A DNA stretch of 55,058 nucleotides from a virus (Duplodnaviria > Caudoviricetes): IMG/VR virus record IMGVR_UViG_3300021520_000004, positions 1 to 55,058 of that record; one strand, 5' to 3'. The position numbers were made by a program, and so were the translations under genes. How positions within the stretch are numbered: position 1 is the first letter of the stretch; each line of letters opens with the position of its first letter. Below the pieces are notes generated by a model. That model was not told the DNA's origin. It ran no database searches and saw only the letters and a list, made by a program, of their open reading frames with translations. This document shows positions 61 to 55,058 of the stretch, in pieces.

Positions 61-1629
61 TCACCTGGCCGAGCGAAAACCGATGCCGCCGCCCGCGTGG
101 CCCGCGGAGATGTTCGCGAGAGCTGCTCGCACCCCAGCGAGGGAACTGCCGTCCCAAGCGCCGCCCACAGAGAGGAGAGCTGGAATACCCTCGGTGTATC
201 CACCACTGTCGGGGTTATAGCTCTGGCCCAGGAAGTTGTATGCCTGGTCGCCCTCGTTGTAGCCTGCGCCCGTGCTCCACGAAGTGGCGCCGCCAACCGC
301 GCCGCCCACCCCAGCCCAGCCACCGCGCAGACCCCCGAAGAACTGTCCAACCCATTCCCAGATGTTGCCCACAGCGTCTGATACTCCGGCAGGGGAGTAC
401 CAGGAACGCGCAGTCTTGGTGGCGGTCCATACGGCAGTGCGTGGCCCAGTGCCACACAGAGTCCGCCCTGCTTGTGTCGGGTCGGCCGTCCCCTGTTGCG
501 AGCCCGTGGTATTCCAGCCGGGTTCTACCGTCGCGCTCAGTGTGGCGTCGGCGGTGTTATCCGTGTAGACGACGGTGGTGTTGTCCGCCAGAGCCGCCGT
601 ACCCGCGACGTGCAGATAGTAGGTGCTGCCGCCGACCTTGGTTCGGTAGAGCTTGCGAGCCGTGGTGCCCGCCGCACCAGTGGGGATACCGGAGAGAGCT
701 ATCTGGCCGTTCGTAGTGTAGTCCGCCACCGTGGTCCCGGCGTTGTCCGCGCCGCCGGTGGTTTCGCCGGTGGCGTTGACCAGCGTGACCTTGTACTTGT
801 ACACCCCGTTGCCCAGAACGCCCGCTCCCGCACCAGCGAGCGCGGAGGTCAACGCGGCGGGAGGTGCGAGATAGGTGGTCGTATCGTCATCGCTCGATCC
901 GTAGGCCGTGTTGCCGTTCATCCGAGCCGGCGTGATGCTGCCGGGGTTCCACTCCGCGCAGCCCAGCCATTCCTCCCAGGTAGGCATACGACAGCCCACA
1001 TTTCTGAGTGCGGCCATGGCGTCCCAGCCCTGAACCGTGTGCCAGGGCACGACACCGTAGCGACTGGTGGGGTAGGCGGAGGTTCCCACGGCCGATGCGG
1101 TCGCGTCCTCGTGGCTGGCAAGGTAGATGCCGATGGCGAGTGCGCCGATCTTCACCATGCCCGGAAGCGGTATACCTGGAGCAAGCTCGGGATGGGCGCG
1201 GTAGGGAGCGGCCATGTTCAGCAGGTCGTTGGAAGTGATCGAGTACTGGAAGATGGCCCCGTCGGCGCCGCCACCCACCACGTCCTTGCCGTTGTGGAAG
1301 TAGCCGAGCAGACGGCTATTGGTCAGCGTGTAGCCTGACGGCAGCAGTCCATCTCCAGCATGGGCCGTAGCGATGAGGGTCAGCTTCGGACCGTCCGGCG
1401 TGGCGAACACGGCGTAGTCCTTGCCCTGCGCGCGCGCCCCAGTGTCGAGGATGGAGAACGTGTAGGTGGTAGTCGCAGCCAGGCTCCAATAGGAGCCCCC
1501 AGTGAACTGCACCGCGCCTGGAGCGATGGAGAACGAATCATCGTCCACCCAGCCGAGCCGCAGGCCCTGACGGGCACCCAGAAAGCGACGGAATAGCTCA
1601 CCACGAGAGATGAGGCTCTGTGTTCTCAT
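61..1629 (-). CDS. DGR target-like virion protein, FGE-sulfatase/C-type lectin fold (Mtd-like)
   Basis: Motifs IGIYLAS, RMPTWEEW, DAVGNIWEWV and C-terminal VGGAW..AGV......IGFRSAR; tail-fibre-like N-terminus; internal Ig/FN3-like segment (YKYKVTLVN..GET..RKLYRT..YTDN). Confidence 0.85.
   Translation of the reverse strand: MRTQSLISRGELFRRFLGARQGLRLGWVDDDSFSIAPGAVQFTGGSYWSLAATTTYTFSILDTGARAQGKDYAVFATPDGPKLTLIATAHAGDGLLPSGYTLTNSRLLGYFHNGKDVVGGGADGAIFQYSITSNDLLNMAAPYRAHPELAPGIPLPGMVKIGALAIGIYLASHEDATASAVGTSAYPTSRYGVVPWHTVQGWDAMAALRNVGCRMPTWEEWLGCAEWNPGSITPARMNGNTAYGSSDDDTTTYLAPPAALTSALAGAGAGVLGNGVYKYKVTLVNATGETTGGADNAGTTVADYTTNGQIALSGIPTGAAGTTARKLYRTKVGGSTYYLHVAGTAALADNTTVVYTDNTADATLSATVEPGWNTTGSQQGTADPTQAGRTLCGTGPRTAVWTATKTARSWYSPAGVSDAVGNIWEWVGQFFGGLRGGWAGVGGAVGGATSWSTGAGYNEGDQAYNFLGQSYNPDSGGYTEGIPALLSVGGAWDGSSLAGVRAALANISAGHAGGGIGFRSAR
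64..170 (-). other. Putative DGR variable region (VR)
   Basis: 3' end of CLec gene; positions that are Asn in typical template repeats hold NNC/NNT codons (GCT,GAC,GGC,CTC,CTC,AAC,ATC,CAC,GGC,GGC,GGC), compatible with A-to-N mutagenesis of AAY. No TR or RT seen in the window. Confidence 0.65.
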
Positions 1630-1632
1630 CGC

Positions 1633-2502
1633 CTAGGCCCCCTTGGTCTGCGAGCAATGGATTGTGGCCGAAGTGGCTCCCGTGCGGATGAACTTGGCAG
1701 CGACGGCCAGTGCCTTGCTCCAGGTGCCCCAGTCCCCGGCCTCCAGAATGTGCCCATCGGTGGCCGTAGGCGCGGAGCCGTCGAAGGTCACCCGGACTTG
1801 AGCAGTCTGCACATCGAGTATGACGTGGGTCGTGTCCGCATGGAAGGCGGCGAATTGCACCCCACCTGCCGTGGCGTCCACGGTGAGGGCCTGATCGGCC
1901 TGGGTGGAGTTGGGGACGAGGTTGGTGGGGTTGAGCGGAACGGTGACGGCCCTCATGGCCGGATTCTGTTCCATGTAGCTGATCTCTTTGAGCACCTGCA
2001 TGGCGGTCACGGGCGTGGTGTCGGTAGCCGTGCTCTTCGCATCTGCCTTAGCTCCGAGGGTCACATCGGCCCCATCGGAGATTGCGCCAGGAACAGCCGT
2101 ACCACCGGATATGCCCTCCACGATGACCGAACGCGCGCCGGCGCCCAGCGGCAACTCTTTGTACTGCGGCGTTCCATCGTTCGACTTGCCGCCGACAATG
2201 TTGATCTTGCTGGGGGCGGTGGTGCCTTGCGCGACCAGACAGTCGTCGATGATCTGAACCGCCGTCTTGATGTCGCTGGCACTGGCTTCGGTGACCGTGC
2301 CCGTCGTGGTAACGGCCCCAGTAATAGGTACCGCCGACGCCCGCAACTGCGTGTCGGTCAACGGGTTGGCCGCCATGGCCCCCGCCAGTTGAGCGATGTC
2401 GGCGTCGGAGAGATCCACCGTCACCTTTCCGCCCGCGACGGTATTGGCGATGTCGCTCAGGTACCCCATGATCGTTCGGAGCATGGTCTGTGGCGAAATC
2501 AT
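1633..2502 (-). CDS. Virion structural protein (fibre/decoration-like, Thr/Ala/Gly-rich)
   Basis: 289 aa from ATG overlapping the upstream stop (ATGA); LTDTQLRASAVP and VRVTFDGSAPTATDGHIL segments resemble phage structural proteins. Confidence 0.65.
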   Translation of the reverse strand: MISPQTMLRTIMGYLSDIANTVAGGKVTVDLSDADIAQLAGAMAANPLTDTQLRASAVPITGAVTTTGTVTEASASDIKTAVQIIDDCLVAQGTTAPSKINIVGGKSNDGTPQYKELPLGAGARSVIVEGISGGTAVPGAISDGADVTLGAKADAKSTATDTTPVTAMQVLKEISYMEQNPAMRAVTVPLNPTNLVPNSTQADQALTVDATAGGVQFAAFHADTTHVILDVQTAQVRVTFDGSAPTATDGHILEAGDWGTWSKALAVAAKFIRTGATSATIHCSQTKGA

Positions 2503-3023
2503 GGTTTTACTCCTTCCATTTCGGGCGCGAAGGCCTTGAGGCCCTCGATCGAACCGGTGCGGATCGCTTCTTCGTCGCCGTTGATGAGGGCGTCTTCCTC
2601 GCCGGCGGCCAGCAGTTGCTCCATCTCGTCGCCAGTGACGGCCTGACCGCGCGAGAGGGCACCCACGCCGCCCCAGGCCGCGGCCTGCTCCCCGATGACC
2701 TTGACGGCCCCCACGAGCTCGCGGACGGTGGCAGTGCCGAGCTTCAGGGACAGAAGGCGCAGCCCCTCGAAGACGATGGGGATGGCGGCGTCCACGAGGT
2801 TCTTGCGCTGCTCCTCCTGGATGCGGTCCCACTCCTCACCCGAGAGAAGGTGTCGCCACTTGGTGACAGTGTTCTCAGAACAGCCCACGAGTTGGGCGAT
2901 CTCGGGCCGAGGTCGGCCGGCGGCGCAGAGCAGGGAGATCTGGACGCGCTGTTCTGGGGTGAGGCTATGCCCCGTCTCCTGTTTTGATGGCACTCTTCGT
3001 ACAAACTCCTTCACGGGCATCAT
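2499..3023 (-). CDS. Terminase small subunit-like protein (paralog of the gene upstream of TerL)
   Basis: N-terminal HTH (RPEIAQLVGCSENTVTKWR); C-terminal 48 aa align without gaps to the ORF at 54904-55058. Confidence 0.7.
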   Translation of the reverse strand: MMPVKEFVRRVPSKQETGHSLTPEQRVQISLLCAAGRPRPEIAQLVGCSENTVTKWRHLLSGEEWDRIQEEQRKNLVDAAIPIVFEGLRLLSLKLGTATVRELVGAVKVIGEQAAAWGGVGALSRGQAVTGDEMEQLLAAGEEDALINGDEEAIRTGSIEGLKAFAPEMEGVKP

Positions 3024-3305
3024 TCACCCCCTTCTATCCGCTATCTCAGCCGCTTCCATCAGGGTGCTTCTGACCCGGTCTGGACCCCAGCTGGGGAACT
3101 TGAACAGCAACGCCGAACCCAGCCCATTCACGAAGTCGTGGTCCTCCTGCGACTCCCCCGCGATGAGTGCGGCACGGTCCTCGATCATGTCGGCCAGCAT
3201 CTCCATGAAGTCGTCCTCCCGGCGGGCCGGCTTGGCCGACTTGCGGAACTCGATCTCCTCGACGATGGGTCGCGCCTGTGTCATGAGGTCGTCGAGGCCG
3301 ATCAT
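3024..3305 (-). CDS. Hypothetical protein
   Basis: 93-aa ORF tightly packed between neighbours (ATGA overlap upstream, abutting downstream). Confidence 0.65.
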   Translation of the reverse strand: MIGLDDLMTQARPIVEEIEFRKSAKPARREDDFMEMLADMIEDRAALIAGESQEDHDFVNGLGSALLFKFPSWGPDRVRSTLMEAAEIADRRG

Positions 3306-3565
3306 TTCAGGAACGCTTCCACAACGACCGCCACAATCAGCCCGGCGCCGACGCTCAGCGTCCCGAAGAAGAGCTTGTCGACCTTGCTCTCGATGCGCTC
3401 AAGGCTGCCGTTCTGCCGCTCCTGCCACTTCTCCAGCGAGAGGAATCGCTGATCGCACGCGCCACGGATACACGCCGTCATCTCGCGCTCGGTTTCGCTG
3501 GACTCCGCCCGGCGCTCGGGTCCGATGTAGCCGGGGACTATGACGGTGCGGGAGTAGTCGGTCAT
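3302..3565 (-). CDS. Small coiled-coil + C-terminal TM protein (XhlA/holin-like)
   Basis: GAGGAGG RBS; QNGSLERIESKVDKL coil then hydrophobic FFGTLSVGAGLIVAVVV. Confidence 0.65.
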   Translation of the reverse strand: MTDYSRTVIVPGYIGPERRAESSETEREMTACIRGACDQRFLSLEKWQERQNGSLERIESKVDKLFFGTLSVGAGLIVAVVVEAFLK

Positions 3566-3590
3566 GGACACCTCCTCGGTGTTGGGGCTA

Positions 3591-3617
3591 GGTAGCGGCG
3601 GCAGGACTCGAACCTGC
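3591..3617 (-). other. tRNA 3'-end-like fragment (T-arm + acceptor 3' strand)
   Basis: Minus strand GCAGG-TTCGAGT-CCTGC-CGCCGCT-ACC; no D-arm or anticodon arm upstream (HNH coding sequence instead). Confidence 0.6.
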
Positions 3618-3618
3618 G

Positions 3619-4343
3619 CTAGGACCGCTCGACCCAGTGCATCTTGCGGTGGCAGTTGGCGCAGAGGACGATGCACTTGGCTACCTCGTCCAGGATCCTC
3701 TTCCTGCTCCAGTTACGGGCGATCATGGTGCTTATGTTCGCGTCCTTCTCATTCGGATCGCGGTGGTGAAAATCCAGAGTCGCCGGATGGCTTTCTCCGC
3801 ACTGCTCACAAGTGAGGTGCGACTTGAACGCCCGCCACCACTCCACATGTGCATCTTCTCAGCCTCGGCTTCGGTACGGGTCTGCCGGTTGGACTCGATG
3901 GCCGCCAGCCGTTCGAGGTAGCCGGGATTGAGGCGTTCTTGGCGTTCGCGCTTCATGACGCTCTCACAGGCTTTGCAGCGGTACTGGAAACCGGAGGGAG
4001 ACGACGTGTCTCTATGCCAGAACTCGGTGGTGGCCGACTTTACTTCGCCGCACAGGGGACAACGAATGGCACCCTGTGCTTTGGCCGCTTCACGAGCGTC
4101 GAGTTCGGCTATGCGTTTCGGGGAAAGTTTGCGGCGTCTTGCACCGTCGGTATGGCACGCTTTACACCACCCTGACCAGCCACCACCACGGCGGTTCTTC
4201 TCGCGGTACCAGTACGAGGTGTCTAGAGGGAGTGTGCGCTTGCAGGCGGGACACGTTTTGAGGGGAGGCTCGATTTCTGACCCCCCCCGTGTTTGGCCAT
4301 GACGATGCTTGGGGCGCCGAGCGCCATGGACCTTGACCGGCAT
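3619..4343 (-). pseudogene. Zn-finger + HNH endonuclease split by a frameshift near 3846-3858 (start uncertain)
   Basis: Upstream frame has two CxxC..CKAC units; the -1 frame continues CEQCGESHPATLDFHH...CIVLCANCHRKMH (HNH). May alternatively be two genes. Confidence 0.65.
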
Positions 4344-5727: not shown

Positions 5728-6084
5728 ATGAACAAGCGTCTGACCCTCACCCGCGGGCAAGACCCCTTCCCGATCGTCTCGTTTCGCGATATCGCCAGGC
5801 GCAGCGGAACGCTGGAGGACACGGTGAGCAAATGGATACTCCGCGGTCGGGGACCGAAACCCATCGGCGCCTGCGCCGCCGGCGCCCTGTACTGGTGGCC
5901 GGACTGGCTGGAGTGGTTCGCCGCCAAGCGGCCGGCGGTGCTCGCTGCAATGAGCAATGGGGGGACTCCGGAATCGGCTCTGGCGCCCATCAAGCCGCGG
6001 CCGCCCTGCAATAGCGACGCTGTGGACTCCTGTGCCGACTGCGAATGCACCGCGGACGAGTGCGATTTGAGGGAGGAGTCATGA
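5728..6084 (+). CDS. AlpA/excisionase-like HTH protein with Cys-rich tail
   Basis: IVSFRDIARRSGTLEDTVSKWILRGRGPKP..LYWWPDWLEWF; AAAGGA RBS; ATGA overlap with the recombinase. Confidence 0.7.
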   Translation: MNKRLTLTRGQDPFPIVSFRDIARRSGTLEDTVSKWILRGRGPKPIGACAAGALYWWPDWLEWFAAKRPAVLAAMSNGGTPESALAPIKPRPPCNSDAVDSCADCECTADECDLREES

Positions 6085-6677
6085 CCACCGCGACCCGCCA
6101 CCGCGTCACCGTCCCCGAGGGCCTATCCCGCATGGAGTTCGACCGCCTGATGGACCCGCACACGGTGGGCGATCCGCGCGCCTCGACCTATGCCCGGGAC
6201 CGCATGCTGCTCGAGCTGCTCGCCGGGACGGGGCTGCGCATCAATGAGGCGTTGACACTCAATCGGGATCGGGTGGACTTGGTGGAGCGAAGCATCTGGG
6301 TCCCGGCAGCGCTCAGCAAATCGGGCCGCGCTCGAAAAGTGTACGTGGGAGACACGCTGGTGGGCAAGCTCCGCGCGTACCTCGATTCGCTGCCCGCAAC
6401 GCAATGGGCATTGTTCAGTACCCGCACCGGCGCGCGCCTAACGGATTCGCATGTGCGAAGACTCTTCAAGAAGTTCGCCATGCGCGCAGGAATCGACCCG
6501 GAGCGGTGCCACCCTCATGCCATGAGACATTGCTATGCAAGCCGCTTCTTGGGGAATGGCGGGACGCTCGAAGCTCTGAAAACGCAACTGGGTCATAGCA
6601 GTACCCAGGTGACCAGCATCTATTTGCAGGGAAGTTCTTGGCAAAGGGCGGACGAAGCGCAGAAGCTGGACCTGTAG
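6081..6677 (+). CDS. Tyrosine recombinase, catalytic domain only (198 aa)
   Basis: TGLRINE (R), SKSGR (K), HAMRH (HxxR), LGHS, TSIYL (Y); GGAGGAG RBS; no N-terminal binding domains. Confidence 0.92.
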   Translation: MTTATRHRVTVPEGLSRMEFDRLMDPHTVGDPRASTYARDRMLLELLAGTGLRINEALTLNRDRVDLVERSIWVPAALSKSGRARKVYVGDTLVGKLRAYLDSLPATQWALFSTRTGARLTDSHVRRLFKKFAMRAGIDPERCHPHAMRHCYASRFLGNGGTLEALKTQLGHSSTQVTSIYLQGSSWQRADEAQKLDL

Positions 6678-6850: not shown

Positions 6851-8887
<2,037 letters not shown>

Positions 8888-16402: not shown

Positions 16403-16874
16403 CGTCTCCCGCCTCTTCGTTGGTGAAGCTGATGTCGGAGCGATCGTCAACCGGGGGCGCCTGAGCCTTCGGCGTCTCCTGCGGAGTGGCTTCCGTTGCG
16501 CGTCCGAACACCCGAGCGATCTTGTGGGAGTCACGTGTCTGGCCGTCGGAGCCGACGTAGGGGTCGTTGGCCACTTCGATCATGGCCGGACGTCCGACGA
16601 ACTTCTCCGTATCGAAGCGGAGCGGGCTGTCGGCCTTGACGCCGAACGCCTGCAGGACTTCCTTCAGCTTCCAGAGAGCGTTCGCGGAGAGCGAGGTCAT
16701 GATGGTGCTCTTGAGCCCTTCGGTGTCGGGCTCGGCACTGGTGAACGTCCAGAGCAGGTAGGGGGCCTTCTGGCCCTCCTTGCGCTCCAGGCCGGACACA
16801 CGGGCGCGGTAGATGCCGGCGGGCAGGTACCCGCCGGTCTCGACTCCGGTGAAGTCCACGGCTACGTTAGACAT
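16386..16874 (-). CDS. Single-stranded DNA-binding protein (DUF669-like)
   Basis: LPAGIY, ALWKLK, acidic DDDIPW tail; follows the Sak4-like ATPase. Confidence 0.8.
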   Translation of the reverse strand: MSNVAVDFTGVETGGYLPAGIYRARVSGLERKEGQKAPYLLWTFTSAEPDTEGLKSTIMTSLSANALWKLKEVLQAFGVKADSPLRFDTEKFVGRPAMIEVANDPYVGSDGQTRDSHKIARVFGRATEATPQETPKAQAPPVDDRSDISFTNEEAGDDDIPW

Positions 16875-17601
16875 GCTTGGCCTCCTGGTATTTCTCGGGG
16901 AACATGGCGCGGTGAAGGGCATCGAAGGTCAGAGGGATCACGGCCGGGACTCCTTGGCCGGCGGGGACACGGATCTTTGCCCGGCGTCCCTTGGCCGCGA
17001 CGGTCTGCCCGCGATACTGGACCGTGCCGTCTTCTGCCTTGGTCGGGCCGCCGCAGTACACCACGGCGTCGACCCAGCCGCAGAGTTCGTCTGGCAGCGT
17101 CTTGCCGTTCATGGCCGGACGGGTCACGTTGTCTCCGTCCACCTCCACGTCCTGCGAGAGCGTGATGAACACCACGTTCAGCGGCAGGTCGCGGAAGGCG
17201 CGACAGAGTTTCCGTGAGCGGTCAATGATGTAGCCCCAGTCCGACTCACTGGAGAGGTCGATGTAGGCGCGCTTCACGGCCGGGAACTTGCGGACCACGT
17301 AGTCTGCGAGCTTCTTCTGCATCTCGGTGAGCGAGTCGAGCACCACGCTCTGGTACCCGTGACCGCCCTTGCGCAGGAAGTCGAACGCCGCTTCGAGATC
17401 CTCCCAAGTGTTGATCTCCCACACGTCGACGTTGCGGTCGCGGATGGACAGCAGCCCGCCCTCGGCGGAGAGGAACAGCGGTTTCGGCCAGGTAGACGCC
17501 GCGGTGGTCTTGCCACTTCCCGGCGGCCCGTACAGCACCACCTTGGCCGTGTCCATGGCCAGGTCCTTGGTGCTCTTGATGTTCGGATTCGCGGTTGTCA
17601 T
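16867..17601 (-). CDS. Sak4-like AAA ATPase recombinase
   Basis: LYGPPGSGKTT, AEGG, VVLDSLTE. Confidence 0.85.
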   Translation of the reverse strand: MTTANPNIKSTKDLAMDTAKVVLYGPPGSGKTTAASTWPKPLFLSAEGGLLSIRDRNVDVWEINTWEDLEAAFDFLRKGGHGYQSVVLDSLTEMQKKLADYVVRKFPAVKRAYIDLSSESDWGYIIDRSRKLCRAFRDLPLNVVFITLSQDVEVDGDNVTRPAMNGKTLPDELCGWVDAVVYCGGPTKAEDGTVQYRGQTVAAKGRRAKIRVPAGQGVPAVIPLTFDALHRAMFPEKYQEAKHV

Positions 17602-17626: not shown

Positions 17627-18691
17627 TTAAGCCGCCACTTCCTCCGTCTCGTATTCAGCGTGACGCCGCTCGCGCACGTAGTAGCCCTCGTGCTCCAGTT
17701 CGTCGGAGCGCTCGAGGCAGAGCGGCTTGTAGGCGCACTGGGTGCAGGTCCGGTCCACCACGCGGAAGGTGAAACCGTCGGCCAGGAAGCGCGTGGTGGC
17801 GTAGATGCTCTGACCTATCTCTGCCAACTCGTCCGCGTTGCGGTACACCCGCTCGCGCACGTGGAAGGTGTCACCCTTGGCCGCCAGCAGTTCCAACACT
17901 TCGGCGTAGTCCGCCGGGTCCTGGCTGCGCTCCAGGATGGTGGCCAGGTAGACGGCGTGCGTGGTGTCAACCGCTTTGTCCTGGCTTGTTCCGCCCTTCT
18001 TCAGCAGCGCCGGGACGGTGGGAACCTTCTTGCGAATGACGTTGTAGAACACGCCCACGGGCAGCCCGTACTCCGCTACCGCCCGCATGACGGCCGGGTC
18101 CGCGGTCCCGCGCTTGATCTGCTGTGTGAGCGCCCAGAGGTACCAGCCGCATTGTTCATCCATGGCCAGCAGACCGATGGACGCACGGTCGACCGTGGCC
18201 CAGGCCTTGTTCTCCAAGAGCCACAGTTGCCCGTCGATCACCACCAGGCCGTCGGCTTTGTATCGGTAGTCGAAGCGGCTAGAGGCGCGGCCGCTCAGTG
18301 CAAGCACAGGCGTCCGGCCCTCCAGTTGCGTGCAGATCACGTCGTCAAACTGGTCGGCCGTCCGGGCGTAGTCCACGTACAGCGCCGCGATCTGCTCCAG
18401 CGTCTCGGCGCGTTCGCGGATGGCCACCCACTCTTCCTCGAACAGATCCATCTTGGCCGCGATGCGCTCGGACTCTTCGTGCTCGGCTACCCGCATGGCC
18501 ACCAGCATCGTGTCGTAGTTGTACGCCGGCCAATCGTTGTACAGCGCGTTCAGCCCCGCGTCGATCACGGAGCCCTCGCGGAACCCAGCCGACTTGCGGA
18601 TGGGAGATAGACGACGGTCGTAGTTCAGGTGGCCCTTGTATGGGCACCGACGCCGGTCCTTCATTTCTGAGTACGTAACGGCAGTCTTCAT
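17627..18691 (-). CDS. Cas4/RecB-like PD-(D/E)xK exonuclease
   Basis: TYSE....RCP, KADG, ENK, Q...Y, C-terminal CTQCAYKPLC. Confidence 0.85.
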   Translation of the reverse strand: MKTAVTYSEMKDRRRCPYKGHLNYDRRLSPIRKSAGFREGSVIDAGLNALYNDWPAYNYDTMLVAMRVAEHEESERIAAKMDLFEEEWVAIRERAETLEQIAALYVDYARTADQFDDVICTQLEGRTPVLALSGRASSRFDYRYKADGLVVIDGQLWLLENKAWATVDRASIGLLAMDEQCGWYLWALTQQIKRGTADPAVMRAVAEYGLPVGVFYNVIRKKVPTVPALLKKGGTSQDKAVDTTHAVYLATILERSQDPADYAEVLELLAAKGDTFHVRERVYRNADELAEIGQSIYATTRFLADGFTFRVVDRTCTQCAYKPLCLERSDELEHEGYYVRERRHAEYETEEVAA

Positions 18692-20162: not shown

Positions 20163-20726
20163 TCAGGAGCACCTGAATATCTTGATGTCGGCACCGTGCA
20201 ACTTCGCCCAGTCCCAGTCCACAAAGATGAAGGATGCGTTTGAGGTCCGCCTGATACCGTAGAGCCCGGCGATGCTGCGGGGGAGATCGACTACTTCTTG
20301 CGCGAGACGTATGAGGCCTGCGGTTCTCATGGCTGCGGCCGACAGAAGAACTCCATCCTGTCTCTTGCTCACATACGCCTGCACCCACAGGTGCGGGTAA
20401 ATCCAGCCACGGTCAGACTCGATCGCGCTGAGACGTTTCTCGTACTCGGTCTTTGCACCGGACGTGCGCGAGTAGCGAATGGTGAAGGTGTCCCAGGCCG
20501 TCTCCCACTGGATCCGACTGGCGATGCCTCGGATACCAAGCTCCTCCTGGTGATGCCAGGCGTCGATACCGGACGCCATGTCCATCAACCTGGCCATGCC
20601 GCTGTCGGTGACAGTCTCCACGGGGATGAGAGCGCCGCCGCCGAACCACGGAGACACAACCGGCCAGACAATCTCCACGAAGTCGCGAGCGCTGTCGGAC
20701 AGGTCTTTCGCGACAACCGCCCTCAT
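20163..20726 (-). CDS. Hypothetical protein coupled to the ParB-methylase (possible nuclease fold)
   Basis: 187 aa, ATGA overlap; MD..SGIDAW, ASRIQ, TFTIR, TEYEKR. Confidence 0.7.
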   Translation of the reverse strand: MRAVVAKDLSDSARDFVEIVWPVVSPWFGGGALIPVETVTDSGMARLMDMASGIDAWHHQEELGIRGIASRIQWETAWDTFTIRYSRTSGAKTEYEKRLSAIESDRGWIYPHLWVQAYVSKRQDGVLLSAAAMRTAGLIRLAQEVVDLPRSIAGLYGIRRTSNASFIFVDWDWAKLHGADIKIFRCS

Positions 20727-21955
20727 GCCGTCACCGTGAGTCCGCGTTGCTCGCAGATAGCGAGCATGGCGGGGTTCGTGTCGCATCCCCACCCTTGGCG
20801 TCCCAACCGCGCAGCCGCCAGAAGGTGCGTGCCGGTACCCGCAAATGGATCAATCACCAGCTGCCCCGGCGTGGTGGCGTGACGGATGTACTGCTCCACC
20901 AGATCGTCCGGCTTCTGCCAGGTGTGGTAGCGCACTTCGTGGCGCGCGTCGGGTGCGTTGACGATCTGGGCCGAGAACTGCTCGGTGAGTAGTTCACAGT
21001 TGAGAGACGGAGCCGCCGATCCGCGCAGGTAGAAACACGCCTGCCAGTTTCGCTTGTAGCCCATGCTGGGCGCCGGGCCGATGGTGTTGCGATAGGCCCA
21101 GACGAGCACATCGTCGAGCATCAGACGTTGCTGAGAGAGCAGCACGTCGAGGTAGGCGTGCATCTCTTGTGGGTAAGAGCCCGTGAAGATGTAGGCGCGG
21201 CCGGTAGGCTTCACCGCGTCGAGCGCCACCGGGAGCCAATGACGGGCGAAGGCAACCACGTCGTCAACGTCGGTCGAGTAGGGCGGGTCGGTGAGCAGCA
21301 GGTCCGCACCGCCGGAGTCGGCCACCATGCGCAGAAAGTCACAGGCGTCCGACTGCATCACCCGCGCGGTCAGAGTCTGAGGTAGGTCGGTTTCGATCCG
21401 GGCCGTCTCGCGCTCGACCTTCTGCAGCGCTTTGTACGCGCCGTCAACCTTGCCCGTCTTGTCCATCTTCTCGACGAGAGGCAAGAGTACGGGATCCGCC
21501 TCGGCGGCCTCGACAACGCGCCGCGCCTTCTCCAGCGTGCGGCCGGACATGCCGACGTAGGTGGCGGCCTTGTCCACCGTGCGACCGCTAGGGATAGCGA
21601 AACTTTCGCTATCCTCCCGATATGCCTTGTTCACACCTACCGGCGTCCGGACCTCATCCTCCACCGCCCGAGCGATATCCACAGCCTCGGACGGCGATAA
21701 GTCGAGTCGCTCGACGTTCTCGTCATGCTCGCCGCGCAGGATGTCCGCGAGGTCGAGGACGGTCACCGGCGTCTCAGTCCAACCGAGCAGACGCACGGCT
21801 GCAAGCCGCCGCTCTCCGGCGATGAGCCGATGGTCGGGAGTGACAACCGGCGGATGGAGTAGGCCGATTGCGGCAATGCTGTCGGCAAGGGACTGGATGT
21901 CCCCGAGGTTCTTGCGCCGCCGGGTACCGACGATGATGGAGTCGGTAGGGATCAT
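20723..21955 (-). CDS. ParB-like N-terminal domain fused to a DNA amino-methyltransferase
   Basis: LADSI..IGLLHP, AGERRLAA, ENVER; TDPPY, HTWQKP, DPFAGTGT. Confidence 0.9.
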   Translation of the reverse strand: MIPTDSIIVGTRRRKNLGDIQSLADSIAAIGLLHPPVVTPDHRLIAGERRLAAVRLLGWTETPVTVLDLADILRGEHDENVERLDLSPSEAVDIARAVEDEVRTPVGVNKAYREDSESFAIPSGRTVDKAATYVGMSGRTLEKARRVVEAAEADPVLLPLVEKMDKTGKVDGAYKALQKVERETARIETDLPQTLTARVMQSDACDFLRMVADSGGADLLLTDPPYSTDVDDVVAFARHWLPVALDAVKPTGRAYIFTGSYPQEMHAYLDVLLSQQRLMLDDVLVWAYRNTIGPAPSMGYKRNWQACFYLRGSAAPSLNCELLTEQFSAQIVNAPDARHEVRYHTWQKPDDLVEQYIRHATTPGQLVIDPFAGTGTHLLAAARLGRQGWGCDTNPAMLAICEQRGLTVTA

Positions 21956-24451: not shown

Positions 24452-25246
24452 TCAGAGTCCGCGAATCATCGGACCCGACCAGTCGATAGCCAGAGCGGAG
24501 ATCTCCTCGCCGCAGAACTTGTGCGCCACGCGCGACGGCCGGGGGCGCTTGCGGTCAACACCCGTGCGCCCCGGTACCAACGATGGGCCGTCGGCATGGT
24601 CGGCAAGACAGGGCCACGTGTACCATGCGCGAATGCCCCACTCCTCCCAGTAGCGCGAGAGCCTGAGATCGTAGTTCAGGATGTCCACCAGGGGGTCGCA
24701 GAACTCGATCATCGGCACCACCGTCTCGGTCGGCACGACGATGAGCGGACCCCAGTGAATCTGTCGCATGGTGATCCACGATGCGCCCTTGCGGTCGGCG
24801 AGCGCGACGAGATCCTTCACCTTGTCGTTCTGGGGCCTCAGACGGCCCACGTAGCCCACGAGGGGAGCTTCGGGAGGGATGTAGGCCAGAGCGCGCTCCA
24901 GGCCCGCCAGGAGGTCGTGAGGGATCAGTACGTCATCCTGGAGGACGAGGTGATGGGTGCAGTCGGGATCGGCCGCCAGCATACTGCGCCGACCGGTGTC
25001 CCATCGGTCCTGCAACTGATCCCAGACCACCGGCACCTCGCGGTCGAGCTTCCCGATGAGATGCTCGACCTGTCCCGCTCTGGCCGGGTGCGCCATGATG
25101 GCGGCCGAGAGCCGGATCTCCCTGTCGGAGGGTATCGTCCGAGGGAGGGGGGCTTCACGCTGTGGTTCCCGCGGCGCTCGCACTGGTTCCGGTCGCTCGC
25201 GCTTCGCCTTCTGCATCTGGGCGTTGGTGAAGATGGGGCCGTTCAC
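24452..25246 (-). CDS. Glycosyltransferase (GT-A-like), paralog 3
   Basis: LSAAIMAHP.R..WDTGRR..THHLVLQDD..WYTWP.LADH. Confidence 0.8.
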   Translation of the reverse strand: MNGPIFTNAQMQKAKRERPEPVRAPREPQREAPLPRTIPSDREIRLSAAIMAHPARAGQVEHLIGKLDREVPVVWDQLQDRWDTGRRSMLAADPDCTHHLVLQDDVLIPHDLLAGLERALAYIPPEAPLVGYVGRLRPQNDKVKDLVALADRKGASWITMRQIHWGPLIVVPTETVVPMIEFCDPLVDILNYDLRLSRYWEEWGIRAWYTWPCLADHADGPSLVPGRTGVDRKRPRPSRVAHKFCGEEISALAIDWSGPMIRGL

Positions 25247-25962
25247 TGCCCACCCCGCCGGTCGATAGTGATCTCGGGGAGTAGGCCGCCGGCCGCATTC
25301 ACCACAGGCCCGTCCCAGTTCACCTTGAGCGCCGACCGGTCCCGGCCCAGAAAGTGTTCGGCCACCCGGCCGCCGGGATGACCCGGTCGTGCCATCGGCC
25401 GGCCGGGTACCACCGAGGGACTCTCACGATGGTCGACCAGCGACGGCCACGTGTACCAGACCCGCACCCCGCGCTCCAGCTCCCAGTAGCGGGAGAGGCG
25501 CCGGTCATAGTTGGGGATGGTCGTGAGCGTGTCGCAGTGAGCCACCATCGCGTCGATGGCCTCGGTGGGCACCACGACAAGCGGTCCCCAGTTCAGCGTG
25601 TGCATGGTCAGGAACGACGCCTTCATGCCGTCCGCCGTCGTCACGGCATCCGCAAGGAAGGGCAGCCGCGGCCGGTAGCGACCCACGTAGCCGCACAGAG
25701 GGGCCTCAGAGGGCACGTAGGCGAGCGCGGCGGCCAGACCGGCCAGGAGGTCGCGACAGGGCACCGCGTCGTCCTGGAGGACCACGTGATGCGTACAGGC
25801 GGGGTCGTAGGCGAGCATGGCACGGCGGCCGGTATCCCAACGGTCAGCCCACCGGTCCCAGATCACCGGGAGCTCGGGGTCGCCCAGTGCGGCGAGCAGA
25901 TCCGGTATGAACGACTGGCGCATCGGGTGGGCCATGATGGCCGCCGACAGGGTGACGGTCAT
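25243..25962 (-). CDS. Glycosyltransferase (GT-A-like), paralog 2
   Basis: LSAAIMAHP.R..WDTGRR..THHVVLQDD..WYTWPSLVDH. Confidence 0.8.
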   Translation of the reverse strand: MTVTLSAAIMAHPMRQSFIPDLLAALGDPELPVIWDRWADRWDTGRRAMLAYDPACTHHVVLQDDAVPCRDLLAGLAAALAYVPSEAPLCGYVGRYRPRLPFLADAVTTADGMKASFLTMHTLNWGPLVVVPTEAIDAMVAHCDTLTTIPNYDRRLSRYWELERGVRVWYTWPSLVDHRESPSVVPGRPMARPGHPGGRVAEHFLGRDRSALKVNWDGPVVNAAGGLLPEITIDRRGGQ

Positions 25963-27118: not shown

Positions 27119-27781
27119 TCAGCATCTCCTCCCGGTCACGGGCCCCAGCCAGTTCCATTCAAGGGCCGAGGCATCTTCGCCAATGAACCGAAACGCTCGC
27201 GTGAACCCGCTGCCCAGAAGCGACGGACCCTCGCGATGGTCCACCAATGACGGCCACGTGTACCAACAGCGCCAGTCCATCACGTCACGGCAATACCGGC
27301 CGATGCGCTGGTCGTCTGCCGGGAAGGCAGCGCCACCTTCCCACGCGAGCATCGGTTCGATGATCCAAGCCGGGAGGACGATCGCGAGTCCCCACCGGAG
27401 CGTCGGCAGCACGAGCCATGAGCAGTCGTCCGCCTCAGCGAGCGCCACCCGCTGCCGCACGCGCGCTACTCCCGTGGCACCCGGGTGAGGCGTCCCCACG
27501 AAGAGGGAGGCGATGGTGTCGAAGGGAGCGCGGGAGGCGAGCGCGGCTTCGAGCCCGGCCCGAAAGTCGCGGCAGACGAGCGCGTCATCTTGGAGAACGA
27601 GGTGGTGAGTCGCGTCCGGGTGGTACATCCTCCAGGCCCGGGAGCATGTGTCCCATAGGCCGAGGCTGCGGTCCCAAGATACGGCGCTGTCCTCGAGGCC
27701 TACCTTCTCCTGGAGATCGTGGACCCATCCTGAGCGCGACGGGTGAGCCATGATGGAGACGGAGAGGCGGGTCTCGCTCAC
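27119..27781 (-). CDS. Glycosyltransferase (GT-A-like), paralog 1
   Basis: LSVSIMAHPSR..WDT..THHLVLQDD..WYTWPSLVDH. Confidence 0.8.
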   Translation of the reverse strand: MSETRLSVSIMAHPSRSGWVHDLQEKVGLEDSAVSWDRSLGLWDTCSRAWRMYHPDATHHLVLQDDALVCRDFRAGLEAALASRAPFDTIASLFVGTPHPGATGVARVRQRVALAEADDCSWLVLPTLRWGLAIVLPAWIIEPMLAWEGGAAFPADDQRIGRYCRDVMDWRCWYTWPSLVDHREGPSLLGSGFTRAFRFIGEDASALEWNWLGPVTGRRC

Positions 27782-44556: not shown

Positions 44557-44958
44557 TCACCTCCTGAACGGGTCGCTATGAAGCTGTTCCTCGGCCATGC
44601 GGAGGATCGCTACCTCTTCCGGTGTGAGGTCTTCTGAGTCCTCTGCTGGTTCTGGCCGGTCTTGCAGGATGCCCACGACCTTGAGGATCTCGATGGCAGA
44701 CCGGGTGATGCGTTGCGCGATCATGTCGGCCAGCATCTCGGCCTCTTCGATCTGGAGCCGCGGCAGATGTCTGCTCATCGTCTGTATGTCGCCGGCCGAC
44801 TCAGAACGCAGGACGCGCCCGAGGGGCATGGCGTAGCCGCGCGCGATGCGGCACAGGCTGCGCTCGATCTCCTCCTCGGTAGGAGGGTCGCGTTCTTCTA
44901 CCGGGCCGCTCTGCGCGCTTCCCGGTTCGCCTTCGCCTTCGCCGGTCCCTCGCGGAAA
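44557..44958 (-). CDS. Tail assembly chaperone, frameshifted C-terminal extension (gpGT-like)
   Basis: -1 frame open from the T TTT TTC slippery site through 44557. Confidence 0.8.
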   Translation of the reverse strand, partial: FPRGTGEGEGEPGSAQSGPVEERDPPTEEEIERSLCRIARGYAMPLGRVLRSESAGDIQTMSRHLPRLQIEEAEMLADMIAQRITRSAIEILKVVGILQDRPEPAEDSEDLTPEEVAILRMAEEQLHSDPFRR

Positions 44959-48533: not shown

Positions 48534-49931
48534 TTACGAGCCGACGGTGATGGTGTTCGGCACGTCGTAGGCGTAGACCACGACGGGTTCCGTGGACGGG
48601 TAGCGGGACTGGAAGTCCTCGCGCATGCTCGCCACGACCTCGTCCGAACCGGCGACGATGTCGCGGAAGGACTCGATCATGGGAGAGCGCTTGCGACCGA
48701 GCACGAAGCCGTTGGTGTTGAGCAGGACGATGCCGGTCTTGGTCTTGGTGGAGTTGTCGTACACGCCGCTCGCGTTCATGTCTTCACGCAGGTAGCCGGT
48801 GGGGATGACGGGAGTACCGTCGAACCGGCCCAATTCCCCGGTGACCACGGTCGCGTTCGGGCCGTATTTCTCCATGGTGATGACCTCGTCGAGGCCCAGC
48901 ATGTGGATCAGTCCGACCGGGGACACGAGATAGGCGAGGCGCCGCACGGAGACGGCGTACTTGCCCATCATGCTGCGCAGGTAGCGCAGACCTTCGGTGG
49001 TCGGGGTACCCATGTCGTAGGTGTCCGACCCGTCCCGGGCGATCTTGCGCAGACCGTCCCAGGCACTGCGGACGTCGGCAGCGGCCGAGGGGCCGGTGAT
49101 GTCCGAGTCCATGTGGGTGCCGTTGTCGTCGCCGTTGATGAGGGCGTCTTCCTCGCCGTCGGCCAGCGCCTGGGCCAGGTCCTGGCGGATGAACGGCAGC
49201 ATGGCGATGATGGCGTCTTCCTCCACCTCGTAGGCCACCGTGCTGTAGGCCGCGATGGTATGGCAGGACAGCGTGATGTCGTCAGTCGTGGACTCCGACT
49301 GAGTCGGGTTGGACAGACGGCCCTTCAGGTACGCGCGGGCCCGAGCGGTCTGCGCCGGGATCTTGAACGGATCGTTGGGCATGGTCACGATGGTGAAGAG
49401 AGCCGCGACCTGGCGCTCAAGCTCGAACTTCATGATGAGGTCCGGGCTGTAGCCGGTGGGAATCCACTCGGAACCGGTGCCGGACCCGCCAACGTAGGAC
49501 GCCTTCACACCTTCGGCCGCCAGTATCTGCTGGATCTCGGCGTAGCTCTTGGTGGCGCGGATGTCGAAGCGAGCGTCCATGCGTTTCACGAACCGCATGA
49601 TCTCGAGGACATCCTGGAGTTCGAACAGACGCTTCAGGTTCTCGTCCTTGGTCACCAGGGACGGCAGTTGGAGCTTGCGCTCGAACGCCATCTTCTTCGT
49701 CTCGACGGAACCTTCCACGTCGAAAGCGCGCTTCAGCATCGGGGCTTCGTCGATGCGACGGACCGCGTCGGATACCTTGGCCACGTCATCGGCGATCCGC
49801 AGTAGCTTCTCCTGCACATCGCCGGGGGCGCCTTCCTTGAACTGGGCCTTGGCTTCCTGGACCGCCGTGGTCAGCGTCGCAACGCCTCCCGCGAGTTCGG
49901 CCATCGCGTCTTTCAGTTCTTCTTGCAACAT
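48534..49931 (-). CDS. Major capsid protein (HK97 fold, with N-terminal delta domain)
   Basis: GSEWIPTGYS, EEDA, EEDALINGD, GRFDGTPV, MREDF; AGGAGGT RBS. Confidence 0.93.
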   Translation of the reverse strand: MLQEELKDAMAELAGGVATLTTAVQEAKAQFKEGAPGDVQEKLLRIADDVAKVSDAVRRIDEAPMLKRAFDVEGSVETKKMAFERKLQLPSLVTKDENLKRLFELQDVLEIMRFVKRMDARFDIRATKSYAEIQQILAAEGVKASYVGGSGTGSEWIPTGYSPDLIMKFELERQVAALFTIVTMPNDPFKIPAQTARARAYLKGRLSNPTQSESTTDDITLSCHTIAAYSTVAYEVEEDAIIAMLPFIRQDLAQALADGEEDALINGDDNGTHMDSDITGPSAAADVRSAWDGLRKIARDGSDTYDMGTPTTEGLRYLRSMMGKYAVSVRRLAYLVSPVGLIHMLGLDEVITMEKYGPNATVVTGELGRFDGTPVIPTGYLREDMNASGVYDNSTKTKTGIVLLNTNGFVLGRKRSPMIESFRDIVAGSDEVVASMREDFQSRYPSTEPVVVYAYDVPNTITVGS

Positions 49932-53453: not shown

Positions 53454-54896
53454 CTACCTCCTTGCGCGTTCGCGCAGACGTTGCATCGCATAGGGTTCGT
53501 CGGAGTCGTAGTCTTCGTCGAGGTCGTCGTCCTTGCCGAGGACGGCTTCCTCGTCGGGTTCTTCTTCCTCATCGTCGATGTCGATGCCGGGGCGGTTGCG
53601 GGCGATTTGAGACAAAACTCCGTAGCGGATCGCGTCTGGGCAATGCGTGTTGTTCTTGGGGTCCGGCTGGTTGTTCACCCATTCGTAGGTGCCGAACTCC
53701 TTGATGGTCATCTTGCAGCGCGGATGCACGAGGATGGCGGGGGCACCCAGAAGTTTCTGCACTTTGAGCAGCCGCTTCACGACCTTGATGCCCACGATGA
53801 CCGGGTTGTCGGACTGAGTGCGGTGATCGAGCGAGGGCGCGGCCTTGGCCTCCCAGCCGAAGATCTTCAAGTCCTTGATACCGTCCGGGGAACGCGGGTC
53901 GCAGTAGAGCACTTCGGGTTTGGCATGGGCCGAGCCGGGACGATCGAACCACTCCTCCAGGCGGGCCGCGTGCTCCGCAGGCGTCATGCGCTGGAAGTAG
54001 TATTCGTCGTGGATAAAGGCTTGGCCCTCCTGAGTCACTTGGACCAAGAGGCAGACAAACGGATCAGAAAAACCGAGGTCCACCCAGCCCGTGAAGGGCA
54101 CGTCCGGGAGCACCTCGAAGCGCTGCACGTGAACGTCGGGGTCGAACTCCTCATAGACCAGCCCGGCGTGCGTAGTGAAGTCCGCGGCGATCTCCTGGGC
54201 GAACTCCACCTTGGGGAGAGATTCCTCCAGCTCCATGATCTCCGGGTCGTTGCGGCCGCCGGGGTAGATCACCGGGTTTGTCCATGAGGGGTTCTGGAAG
54301 GTGGCCCACTGAGACGATTCCTTGGCCTTCTCCACCAGGTCGTAGTACCAGTTGCGGCCTCGAGGCGTGGTGGAGAAGACCGCCACCCCGTGGAAGTCAC
54401 CAAGTGTCGGTCGGATAAGTTCCGTCCAGATGTGGGGCTTGAGGCGCGCGGCTTCCGCCATGATGACGGCGCCCACGCCCTCGCCGACCATCTGGTCTTC
54501 CTTCTCCTGGGAGCGGACCTCGATGGTGGCCCCGTTGCGGACCTTGAGCAGGTAGCGGCCGCCGATGACGTCCAGAACGTCCTTCTCCAGCTTCAGGTGG
54601 CCCTTGCGTTGCTGGATGCGTAGATCGTGCTGGAAGAGGCGAAACTCCTTGACCGCGAGCCCCTGTGTCGGCCCCACCACCCAGATGTAGAGATCGGGGA
54701 TGTAGACCAGGGATCCGATGTCGCGGACCCCACTCACGGTTTTCCCGTACCTTCTTCCACATGTGTTGGTCTTGAACCGCGCCGTGGAGTCGTGGAAGGC
54801 GATCTGGCCCGCATGGGGCGTGTAGCCGATGCGGTCCCAGTATTCGCGCTTGGCTTCGGGCCGCAGGAGTTCCCGGATGGTCGCGCGGATGTTCAC
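53454..54896 (-). CDS. terL: Terminase large subunit
   Basis: PHAGQ, GRRYGKT, TTPRG.NW, VDLGFSDP, H..DAIRY. Confidence 0.95.
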   Translation of the reverse strand: MNIRATIRELLRPEAKREYWDRIGYTPHAGQIAFHDSTARFKTNTCGRRYGKTVSGVRDIGSLVYIPDLYIWVVGPTQGLAVKEFRLFQHDLRIQQRKGHLKLEKDVLDVIGGRYLLKVRNGATIEVRSQEKEDQMVGEGVGAVIMAEAARLKPHIWTELIRPTLGDFHGVAVFSTTPRGRNWYYDLVEKAKESSQWATFQNPSWTNPVIYPGGRNDPEIMELEESLPKVEFAQEIAADFTTHAGLVYEEFDPDVHVQRFEVLPDVPFTGWVDLGFSDPFVCLLVQVTQEGQAFIHDEYYFQRMTPAEHAARLEEWFDRPGSAHAKPEVLYCDPRSPDGIKDLKIFGWEAKAAPSLDHRTQSDNPVIVGIKVVKRLLKVQKLLGAPAILVHPRCKMTIKEFGTYEWVNNQPDPKNNTHCPDAIRYGVLSQIARNRPGIDIDDEEEEPDEEAVLGKDDDLDEDYDSDEPYAMQRLRERARR

Positions 54897-54903
54897 TCCG
54901 GCG

Positions 54904-55058
54904 TCATACCTTCACGAAGGCTTTGAGCCCTTCCATGGAGCCGCTGCGCAGAGCTTCTTCGATGGCCTCCTGACGGCGCCGGGCTTCAGCGGCCGCGAGG
55001 ATGCTCTCAAGCTCACCCTCGCCCCGGCCCGCCCCGGCTGCCATGGCACCCACGCCAC
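54904..55058 (-). CDS. Terminase small subunit, 3' end (truncated by window edge)
   Basis: GVGAMAAGAGRGEGELESILAAAEARRRQEAIEEALRSGSMEGLKAFVKV stop, immediately upstream of terL; homologous to the HTH protein at 2499-3023. Confidence 0.7.
   Translation of the reverse strand, partial: GVGAMAAGAGRGEGELESILAAAEARRRQEAIEEALRSGSMEGLKAFVKV

Follow-up and report, generated by a model that had tools for sequence, protein, structure and literature searches.

An in-frame patch of major capsid gene sequence in a terminase small subunit-family paralog of a freshwater phage

Templated mutagenesis from imperfect direct repeats was reportedly described in phage T4 by Schultz and Drake, in Genetics in 2008, and Martinsohn et al. 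are said to have reported in 2008 homeologous recombination by lambda Red. Sak4 of HK620 annealed oligonucleotides that were up to 20% diverged in vitro, as described in PMC5928155, and PMC8604942 describes template switches as a source of multi-nucleotide mutations in coding genes, at nearby inverted repeats in yeast.

The locus described here is a tract of the major capsid gene found within an unrelated gene of the same 55,058-nt phage record (the window, meaning the whole stretch of DNA analysed). As in the T4 system, a cluster of changes appears to be copied from an ectopic imperfect repeat of the same genome with a short-homology anchor, and a complex multi-nucleotide mutation results. 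It departs from that system in that donor and recipient stand 46.5 kb apart on the linear record, a distance that may shrink to about 11 kb if a circular junction is crossed, that the two are unrelated genes with a tract of about 24-33 nt, and that the variant is a natural polymorphism instead of a change in a reporter gene. Short diverged pairing is also what phage single-strand annealing proteins perform, and a Sak4-like protein and an exonuclease are encoded here; the unpatched form of the site is about 84% identical to the donor, which falls within the 20% divergence tolerated by Sak4 in vitro (PMC5928155). Known annealase cases swap homologous modules between phages, whereas this is a tiny internal patch between non-homologous genes, and no crossover product was seen for the capsid-to-paralog patch. 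The yeast events of PMC8604942 are alike in that several codons are rewritten, and a new peptide can arise, when a polymerase switches between short repeats that are not identical; there the repeats are inverted and nearby, while the phage repeat is direct and distant. DGR mutagenic retrohoming shares with this locus a short targeted overwrite of coding sequence, here near an Mtd-like gene, and differs from it in the absence of a reverse transcriptase or template repeat from the window, the faithful copying and the capsid-gene donor. The patch is an unusually clear natural example of templated conversion and not a new system.

The shared tract and the two genes that carry it

The window is a linear IMG/VR record (63.5% G+C, CheckV completeness 62%) with nearly all genes on the minus strand. 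Reading along this strand, the large terminase gene terL (53454-54896) is followed by genes for the portal, the prohead protease, the HK97-type major capsid protein (48534-49931, minus strand, 465 aa; Phage_capsid, 2.8e-15) and the tail. The replication and recombination block encodes a primase-helicase, a Sak4-like single-stranded DNA annealing protein (16867-17601, minus strand; phrog_124, 4e-42; AAA_24, 5e-30), an adjoining PD-(D/E)XK exonuclease (17627-18691, minus strand), a resolvase-like protein and two methyltransferases. DNA methyltransferase genes are found at 7486-8742 and 20723-21955 (minus strand); in the second, the methyltransferase is fused to a domain resembling ParB-like nucleases. 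An integrase gene on the plus strand (6045-6677) suggests a temperate lifestyle. A diverged direct repeat of 45-78 nt, ending in GGCCACGTGTACCA, occurs in three copies (24567-24644, 25400-25477 and 27221-27265) within neighbouring minus-strand ORFs and probably marks a small paralogous gene family.

At the far end, the minus-strand order is a zinc-ribbon protein, three small ORFs, the 174-aa recipient protein (2499-3023, minus strand), a 289-aa ORF without family match and an Mtd-like receptor-binding protein (61-1629, minus strand; mtd_2nd, 6.5e-8), which is encoded two genes downstream of the recipient. The Mtd-like protein ends 60 nt from the contig start and has a weak FGE-sulfatase/C-type-lectin-like C-terminus. 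Upstream of the recipient gene, a 75-aa ORF (3619-3846, minus strand) contains Cys and His pairs (CEQCG...HH...CANCH) that look HNH-like by eye; it had no Pfam match at 1e-3. HNH genes are often located near terminase genes.

Positions 2572-2613 of the recipient gene and 49126-49167 of the capsid gene (ALADGEEDALINGDD, minus strand) share 41 of 42 nt in the same orientation. The tract consists of an exact 33-nt stretch (2572-2604), a G/T mismatch at 2605 and 8 further matching nt. On the minus strand it encodes residues L138-D150 of the recipient (LAAGEEDALINGD) plus the first two bases of E151, and the reading frame is the same in the capsid gene, where the peptide is LADGEEDALINGD. In a repeat scan of the 55,058 nt, the 33-nt exact stretch was the longest repeat of the record, and BLAST of the recipient gene against the record returned the tract with E = 4.3e-15. 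None of 100 dinucleotide shuffles gave a second match at three or fewer mismatches, and exact repeats in 30 triplet shuffles reached at most 16-22 nt, compared with the 33 nt observed. Alignment, BLAST and shuffles thus confirmed the match that a first, sequence-only reading of the window had reported, with its strand and frame; chance or convergence as the source of the tract is rejected on the two sets of shuffles (0/100 dinucleotide and 0/30 triplet).

The second-longest exact repeat measured 22 nt (3182-3203 and 44718-44739, same strand and frame) and encodes the peptide EMLADMI, both in a 93-aa ORF just upstream of the recipient gene (3024-3305) and in a 90-aa ORF (44557-44829) located between a tail chaperone-like gene and the tape measure gene. 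A 22-nt exact repeat was reached in 1 of 30 shuffles, and a relative of the recipient (P0006, described below) reads LGVLADMI at this site, which would leave only about two new codons. This repeat, about 570 nt from the capsid patch, may be a second micro-patch or a product of chance.

The N-terminus of the 174-aa protein (residues 18-73) matched HTH_23 at 2.1e-9, with HTH_29 and HTH_38 above cut-off. Terminase_5 matched with E = 0.009 and 16.4 bits, below its cut-off of 20.3, and the PHROG families named 'terminase small subunit' only with E of about 1e-3, the best PHROG match being 'DNA binding protein'. A homolog with 46% identity (locus L003) is encoded by an ORF that ends 113 nt before terL, which a portal gene accompanies, and another with 36% identity (L004) is found near terL with an integrase-like ORF between the two. 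The window itself contains a TerS fragment upstream of terL (54904-55056, minus strand), of which only the last 50 residues are visible because the contig end cuts the gene; it carries the unpatched sequence AEARRRQEAIEEA. The tail EEA[IL]R[TS]GS[IM]EGLKAF is common to this fragment and to the 174-aa protein, 24 of their 50 aligned pairs are identical, and the genes are about 77% identical over the last 47 nt. The alignment between the two proteins, earlier described as gap-free, held with a sole gap in the last residues. Since the homologs of L003 and L004 sit by terL and the tail is shared, the family of the 174-aa protein can be read as the TerS of this phage group. The 174-aa gene is not itself adjacent to terL, being followed instead by the 289-aa ORF and the Mtd-like gene, and because the terL-adjacent copy occupies 54904-55056 and beyond, we consider it a paralog. 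By homology it is a second, diverged TerS-family copy. On a circular or permuted genome the two copies would flank the 289-aa/Mtd cassette. An AlphaFold model of the protein had a mean pLDDT of 56 (low confidence), with a helix over residues 131-156 that includes the patch, and a complex prediction for TerL with residues 125-174 of the paralog gave no informative model (score 0.00).

Direction of transfer and natural alleles

The peptide is native to the capsid family. In an alignment of capsid homologs (n = 121, P0009-P0129), the second E of the motif was conserved in 117/121 sequences, the G in 120/121 and the final D in 117/121, and close capsid relatives read LADGEE[DN]A[LI][IL]NGD. The corresponding site has the sequence LAAGEA[KR]RRQxAIEEA, or some variant, in five homologs of the recipient that a word search retrieved and in the TerS fragment of the window. 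When 1.84 billion representatives were searched with a profile of the recipient family, 166 matched at E <= 1e-3. The family alignment comprised 22 rows, in which the recipient (P0001) and the TerS fragment of the window were set beside 20 more proteins of the family. Fourteen of the rows came from the profile search, with a match that reaches the C-terminal tail (P0130-P0136, P0138, P0140, P0141, P0150, P0151, P0174 and P0224); the remaining family rows were P0002-P0007. The capsid-like peptide was absent from 21/21 other rows, which carry an x[KR]R[RL]Q-like sequence there, and a text scan of 155 non-capsid proteins (P0001-P0008 and P0130-P0276) found the motif in P0001 only. The motif being native to the capsid and foreign to the TerS family, the transfer went from the capsid gene to the paralog, as far as the compared proteins show.

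Polarity was judged by protein comparison with the closest relatives, P0002 (75% identical) and P0006. The replaced codons are E143-D150 (EDALINGD; 2574-2597, minus strand), where relatives have A[KR]RRQNAI or ARRLKNAV, and the minimal copied tract is about 23-24 nt. The replacement concerns eight residues and not exactly ten as first proposed, because 'GE' is already present in the closest homologs, and the net charge of the eight residues goes from +3 to -3. These comparisons indicate a real, in-frame, length-neutral and derived transfer from the capsid gene into the TerS-family paralog, and the comparison of relatives that the first reading had suggested came out in its favour, with 0/21 other family rows carrying the motif.

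A search of the viral collection, with the own and very near records excluded, found the 33-mer nowhere else. An exact 30-nt part of the tract also occurs in a related capsid gene (L008, 69% protein identity), so that the donor genome is not fixed: judging from these matches, the resident capsid gene is the most economical reading, and a co-infecting close relative could also have been the donor. Exact searches with the 25-nt flanks gave no match in viral or metagenome contig collections, a search for related loci with the single 174-aa protein found none, and alignment-based locus scans found only distant relatives (L003, L004 and L005).

The exact patched protein occurs on 4 contigs from JGI/IMG and ENA, the longest of 57,644 nt extending 2.6 kb beyond the record, and the exact capsid protein likewise occurs on 4 contigs from both sources. 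Metagenome runs from lakes and fresh water (2018-2020; 11 run rows, 9 studies) contained part of the region 1600-3700, and 7 of the 11 rows contained half or more of its words. One of these runs may be the source sample, and same-year, same-habitat studies may belong to one campaign. Alleles were analysed in k=31 contigs of four runs (X2, X7, X8 and X9), X2 being different from the possible source sample. The k=31 contigs cannot phase across the 33-nt repeat, so the linkage of the patched allele is provided by the JGI/ENA contigs; among the contig pieces listed for X2 and X7-X9, no single record bridges the patched allele.

In X2, a 4,927-nt contig covers positions 1-2574 without difference, extends 2,353 nt beyond the record start and ends at the branch point of the alleles and the repeat. 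In this run the window's letters account for about 31 of 49 depth at 2624-2642, and capsid contigs overlie the patch, as expected for a 33-nt repeat. The patched allele was detected in 1/4 runs, a count limited by low depth and by the loss of rare variants in contigs, and the unpatched allele in 4/4, with depths at 2624 of 17.6/48.9 (X2), 3.44/3.44 (X7), 3.22/3.22 (X8) and 2.5/2.5 (X9). Compared with the window, the unpatched allele lacks one base at 2590 and has a G inserted behind 2596. Within 2614-2642 (minus strand) there are six extra substitutions between the alleles (2624, 2625, 2634, 2636, 2641 and 2642), which give S>A, P>T and L>M when P0006 and P0002 are taken as the reference. Lying 11-38 nt upstream of the tract, they agreed, when compared by hand, with neither the capsid gene nor the resident TerS.

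One 663-nt contig of X7 (2545-3207) carries the unpatched allele whole, with 13 substitutions and 2 gaps. When the listed X7 differences and four substitutions required by the residues of P0006 were applied to the window, the product translated exactly to P0006 (GQSVPGDELEQLLAAGEARRLKNAVEEAIRTGSIEG); at least 10 of the 13 substitutions (listed or inferred) fall within 2575-2642. A deletion allele joins 2689 to 3211, skipping 521 nt, with depths of 12.2 in X2 and 2.5 in X9, and corresponds to P0006, a protein of a 41-kb ENA contig in which the N-terminus of the upstream ORF is fused to the C-terminal third of the paralog, without the HTH. As this deletion allele co-circulates, the HTH part of the paralog appears dispensable in some genomes. 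Three haplotypes thus co-circulate: full-length patched (window and X2), full-length unpatched (X7) and deleted unpatched (X9, P0006 and probably X2).

Junctions, mechanism and alternative readings

The coding strand of the recipient is G CTG GCC GCC GGC GAG G / AA GAC GCC CTC ATC AAC GGC GAC / GA A, with slashes at the junctions, and that of the capsid gene is G CTG GCC GAC GGC GAG G AA GAC ... GAC GA C. The left, coding-upstream anchor (2597-2613, minus strand; GCTGGCCG[C/A]CGGCGAGG) is identical to the capsid gene at 16 of 17 nt, the single mismatch at 2605 (recipient C, donor A on the coding strand) lying inside it. This homology would pre-date the event, since LAAGE is already present in relatives. 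At the right junction only 2-3 nt are shared with the capsid gene. In a hand alignment using the rebuilt sequence, the unpatched allele is identical to the capsid gene at 36 of 43 positions (~84%), with two compensating 1-nt gaps. Its local alignment score of 30 compares with a mean of 22.3 (sd 4.6) for a null of 150 random 121-nt loci, of which 6 scored at least 32, placing the unpatched site in the top ~4%. This similarity may represent chance homeology or the relic of an older event.

We consider it probable that a one-off ectopic templated conversion took place, in which roughly 24 nt of a dispensable TerS-family paralog were replaced by sequence from the capsid gene of this phage or of a very close relative. 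Single-stranded DNA of one locus would have annealed to the other at the homeologous site, and the mismatched stretch would have been resolved to the capsid version; the annealing may have been catalysed by the Sak4-like annealase with the exonuclease, or the copying may have occurred by a polymerase template switch in repair synthesis. The in-register alignment of both flanks accounts for a product that keeps length and frame. A recent event is likely, since the tract shows 33/33 identity and lake populations still carry more than one allele. Between the two routes, annealase-assisted pairing of capsid single strands is tentatively favoured, because the Sak4 of HK620 tolerates divergence and this phage encodes a Sak4-like protein by an exonuclease, and a polymerase template switch during repair synthesis stands as a possible alternative. 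The microhomology-driven gene conversion and the Sak4-type gene that the sequence-only reading had put forward both find support, the former in the 16/17-nt left junction and the derived in-frame transfer, the latter in the annealase gene at 16867-17601.

A simple conversion does not account for the six substitutions at 2624-2642. They could be errors of repair synthesis, or they could reflect lineage divergence carried in an exchanged block. In the latter case the patch would be older and derived from another lineage, and a block of about 70 nt (2575-2642) would have moved by homologous recombination between co-infecting relatives, the six flanking substitutions being the divergence of the donor lineage. 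The clustering of ten of the 13 substitutions in 2575-2642, next to the 2 indels, fits such an exchange, as do the left flank that is common up to 2574 (both X2 alleles use the same 1-2574 contig), the 30 nt of the tract shared by a relative's capsid gene and the mosaic nature of the three haplotypes. We nevertheless hold it to be unlikely, in view of a tract that is still 33/33 identical to the resident capsid gene, a 33-mer that no other record of the viral collection contains (own and very near records excluded) and a motif that no other family member examined carries.

The ectopic conversion most likely left a scar, neutral or mildly damaging and with no new function, in a dispensable paralog, as would follow from the loss of a conserved basic cluster in the C-terminal tail, where an acidic capsid peptide now stands; most TerS-family rows retain the basic cluster at this site. 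Alternatively, the patch could be an adaptive graft, through which the TerS paralog shows a capsid peptide as a defence decoy, makes a procapsid contact or engages TerL differently. In favour of this, no linear motif of the capsid family is more conserved than the copied peptide, the ORF is intact and, in X2, the patched allele makes up about 31 of 49 depth there; the allele is however absent from 3 of the 4 runs examined, the gene is deleted in co-occurring genomes, the patch removes the basic cluster and an eight-residue peptide out of its fold would make a poor mimic, which leaves this reading a slight chance. The decoy or procapsid-contact function first envisaged thus found no support, with the basic cluster destroyed, the allele in 1/4 runs and a deletion allele co-circulating.

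An assembly or consensus artefact, in which the assembler jumped to the capsid gene and back, would be encouraged by a 33-nt exact repeat that breaks k=31 graphs, and the Logan contigs do stop at 2574 with capsid contigs overlying the patch. Such an artefact would, however, require the assembler to switch twice in register over a span of 42 nt, and to do so in several assemblies; the same protein is found on 4 contigs from two sources, and the independent sample X2 carries the patch-linked letters. Short reads are usually longer than 33 nt, which also speaks against it. The patch is accordingly a real natural variant, an assembly chimera being very unlikely, and the caveat raised in this respect by the first reading is largely removed by the contigs from two sources and the X2 allele.

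DGRs mutate adenines. That a DGR reverse transcriptase wrote the tract by cDNA retrohoming, the neighbouring-DGR route evoked earlier, has in our view a negligible probability: an Mtd-like target gene, the only DGR-related feature, lies 0.9 kb downstream and the rest of the cassette may lie beyond the contig start, as may the N-terminus of the terL-adjacent TerS, but the donor is the capsid gene and not a template repeat, none of which was found in the repeat scan of the record, PF00078 gave no reverse transcriptase match in the 55,058-nt record (an incomplete one), 9/9 adenines of the 33-nt tract were copied unchanged by hand count, and the six flanking changes are not adenine-specific. With no reverse transcriptase in the window and all adenines faithfully copied, this origin is unsupported.

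Implications for phage gene evolution

On present evidence the patch reveals no new function or system. It offers a clean natural example of micro-scale ectopic conversion between unrelated phage genes, in which the donor, the recipient, the unpatched allele and the deletion allele all co-occur in lake metagenomes. It is improbable, to our mind, that the transfer of short in-frame peptides from one gene to an unrelated one, at about 15-20 nt of chance homeology, is routine in phages with an annealase; if it were, such grafting would be a hidden source of protein innovation, caught here while polymorphic, and the top conserved peptide of the capsid family, displayed on a DNA-binding terminase paralog, could mimic the capsid. 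The locus indicates that phage mosaicism reaches down to in-frame patches of about 24 nt, seeded by 16-17 nt of chance homology, and it provides a concrete place to measure the frequency of such patches in annealase-encoding phages.
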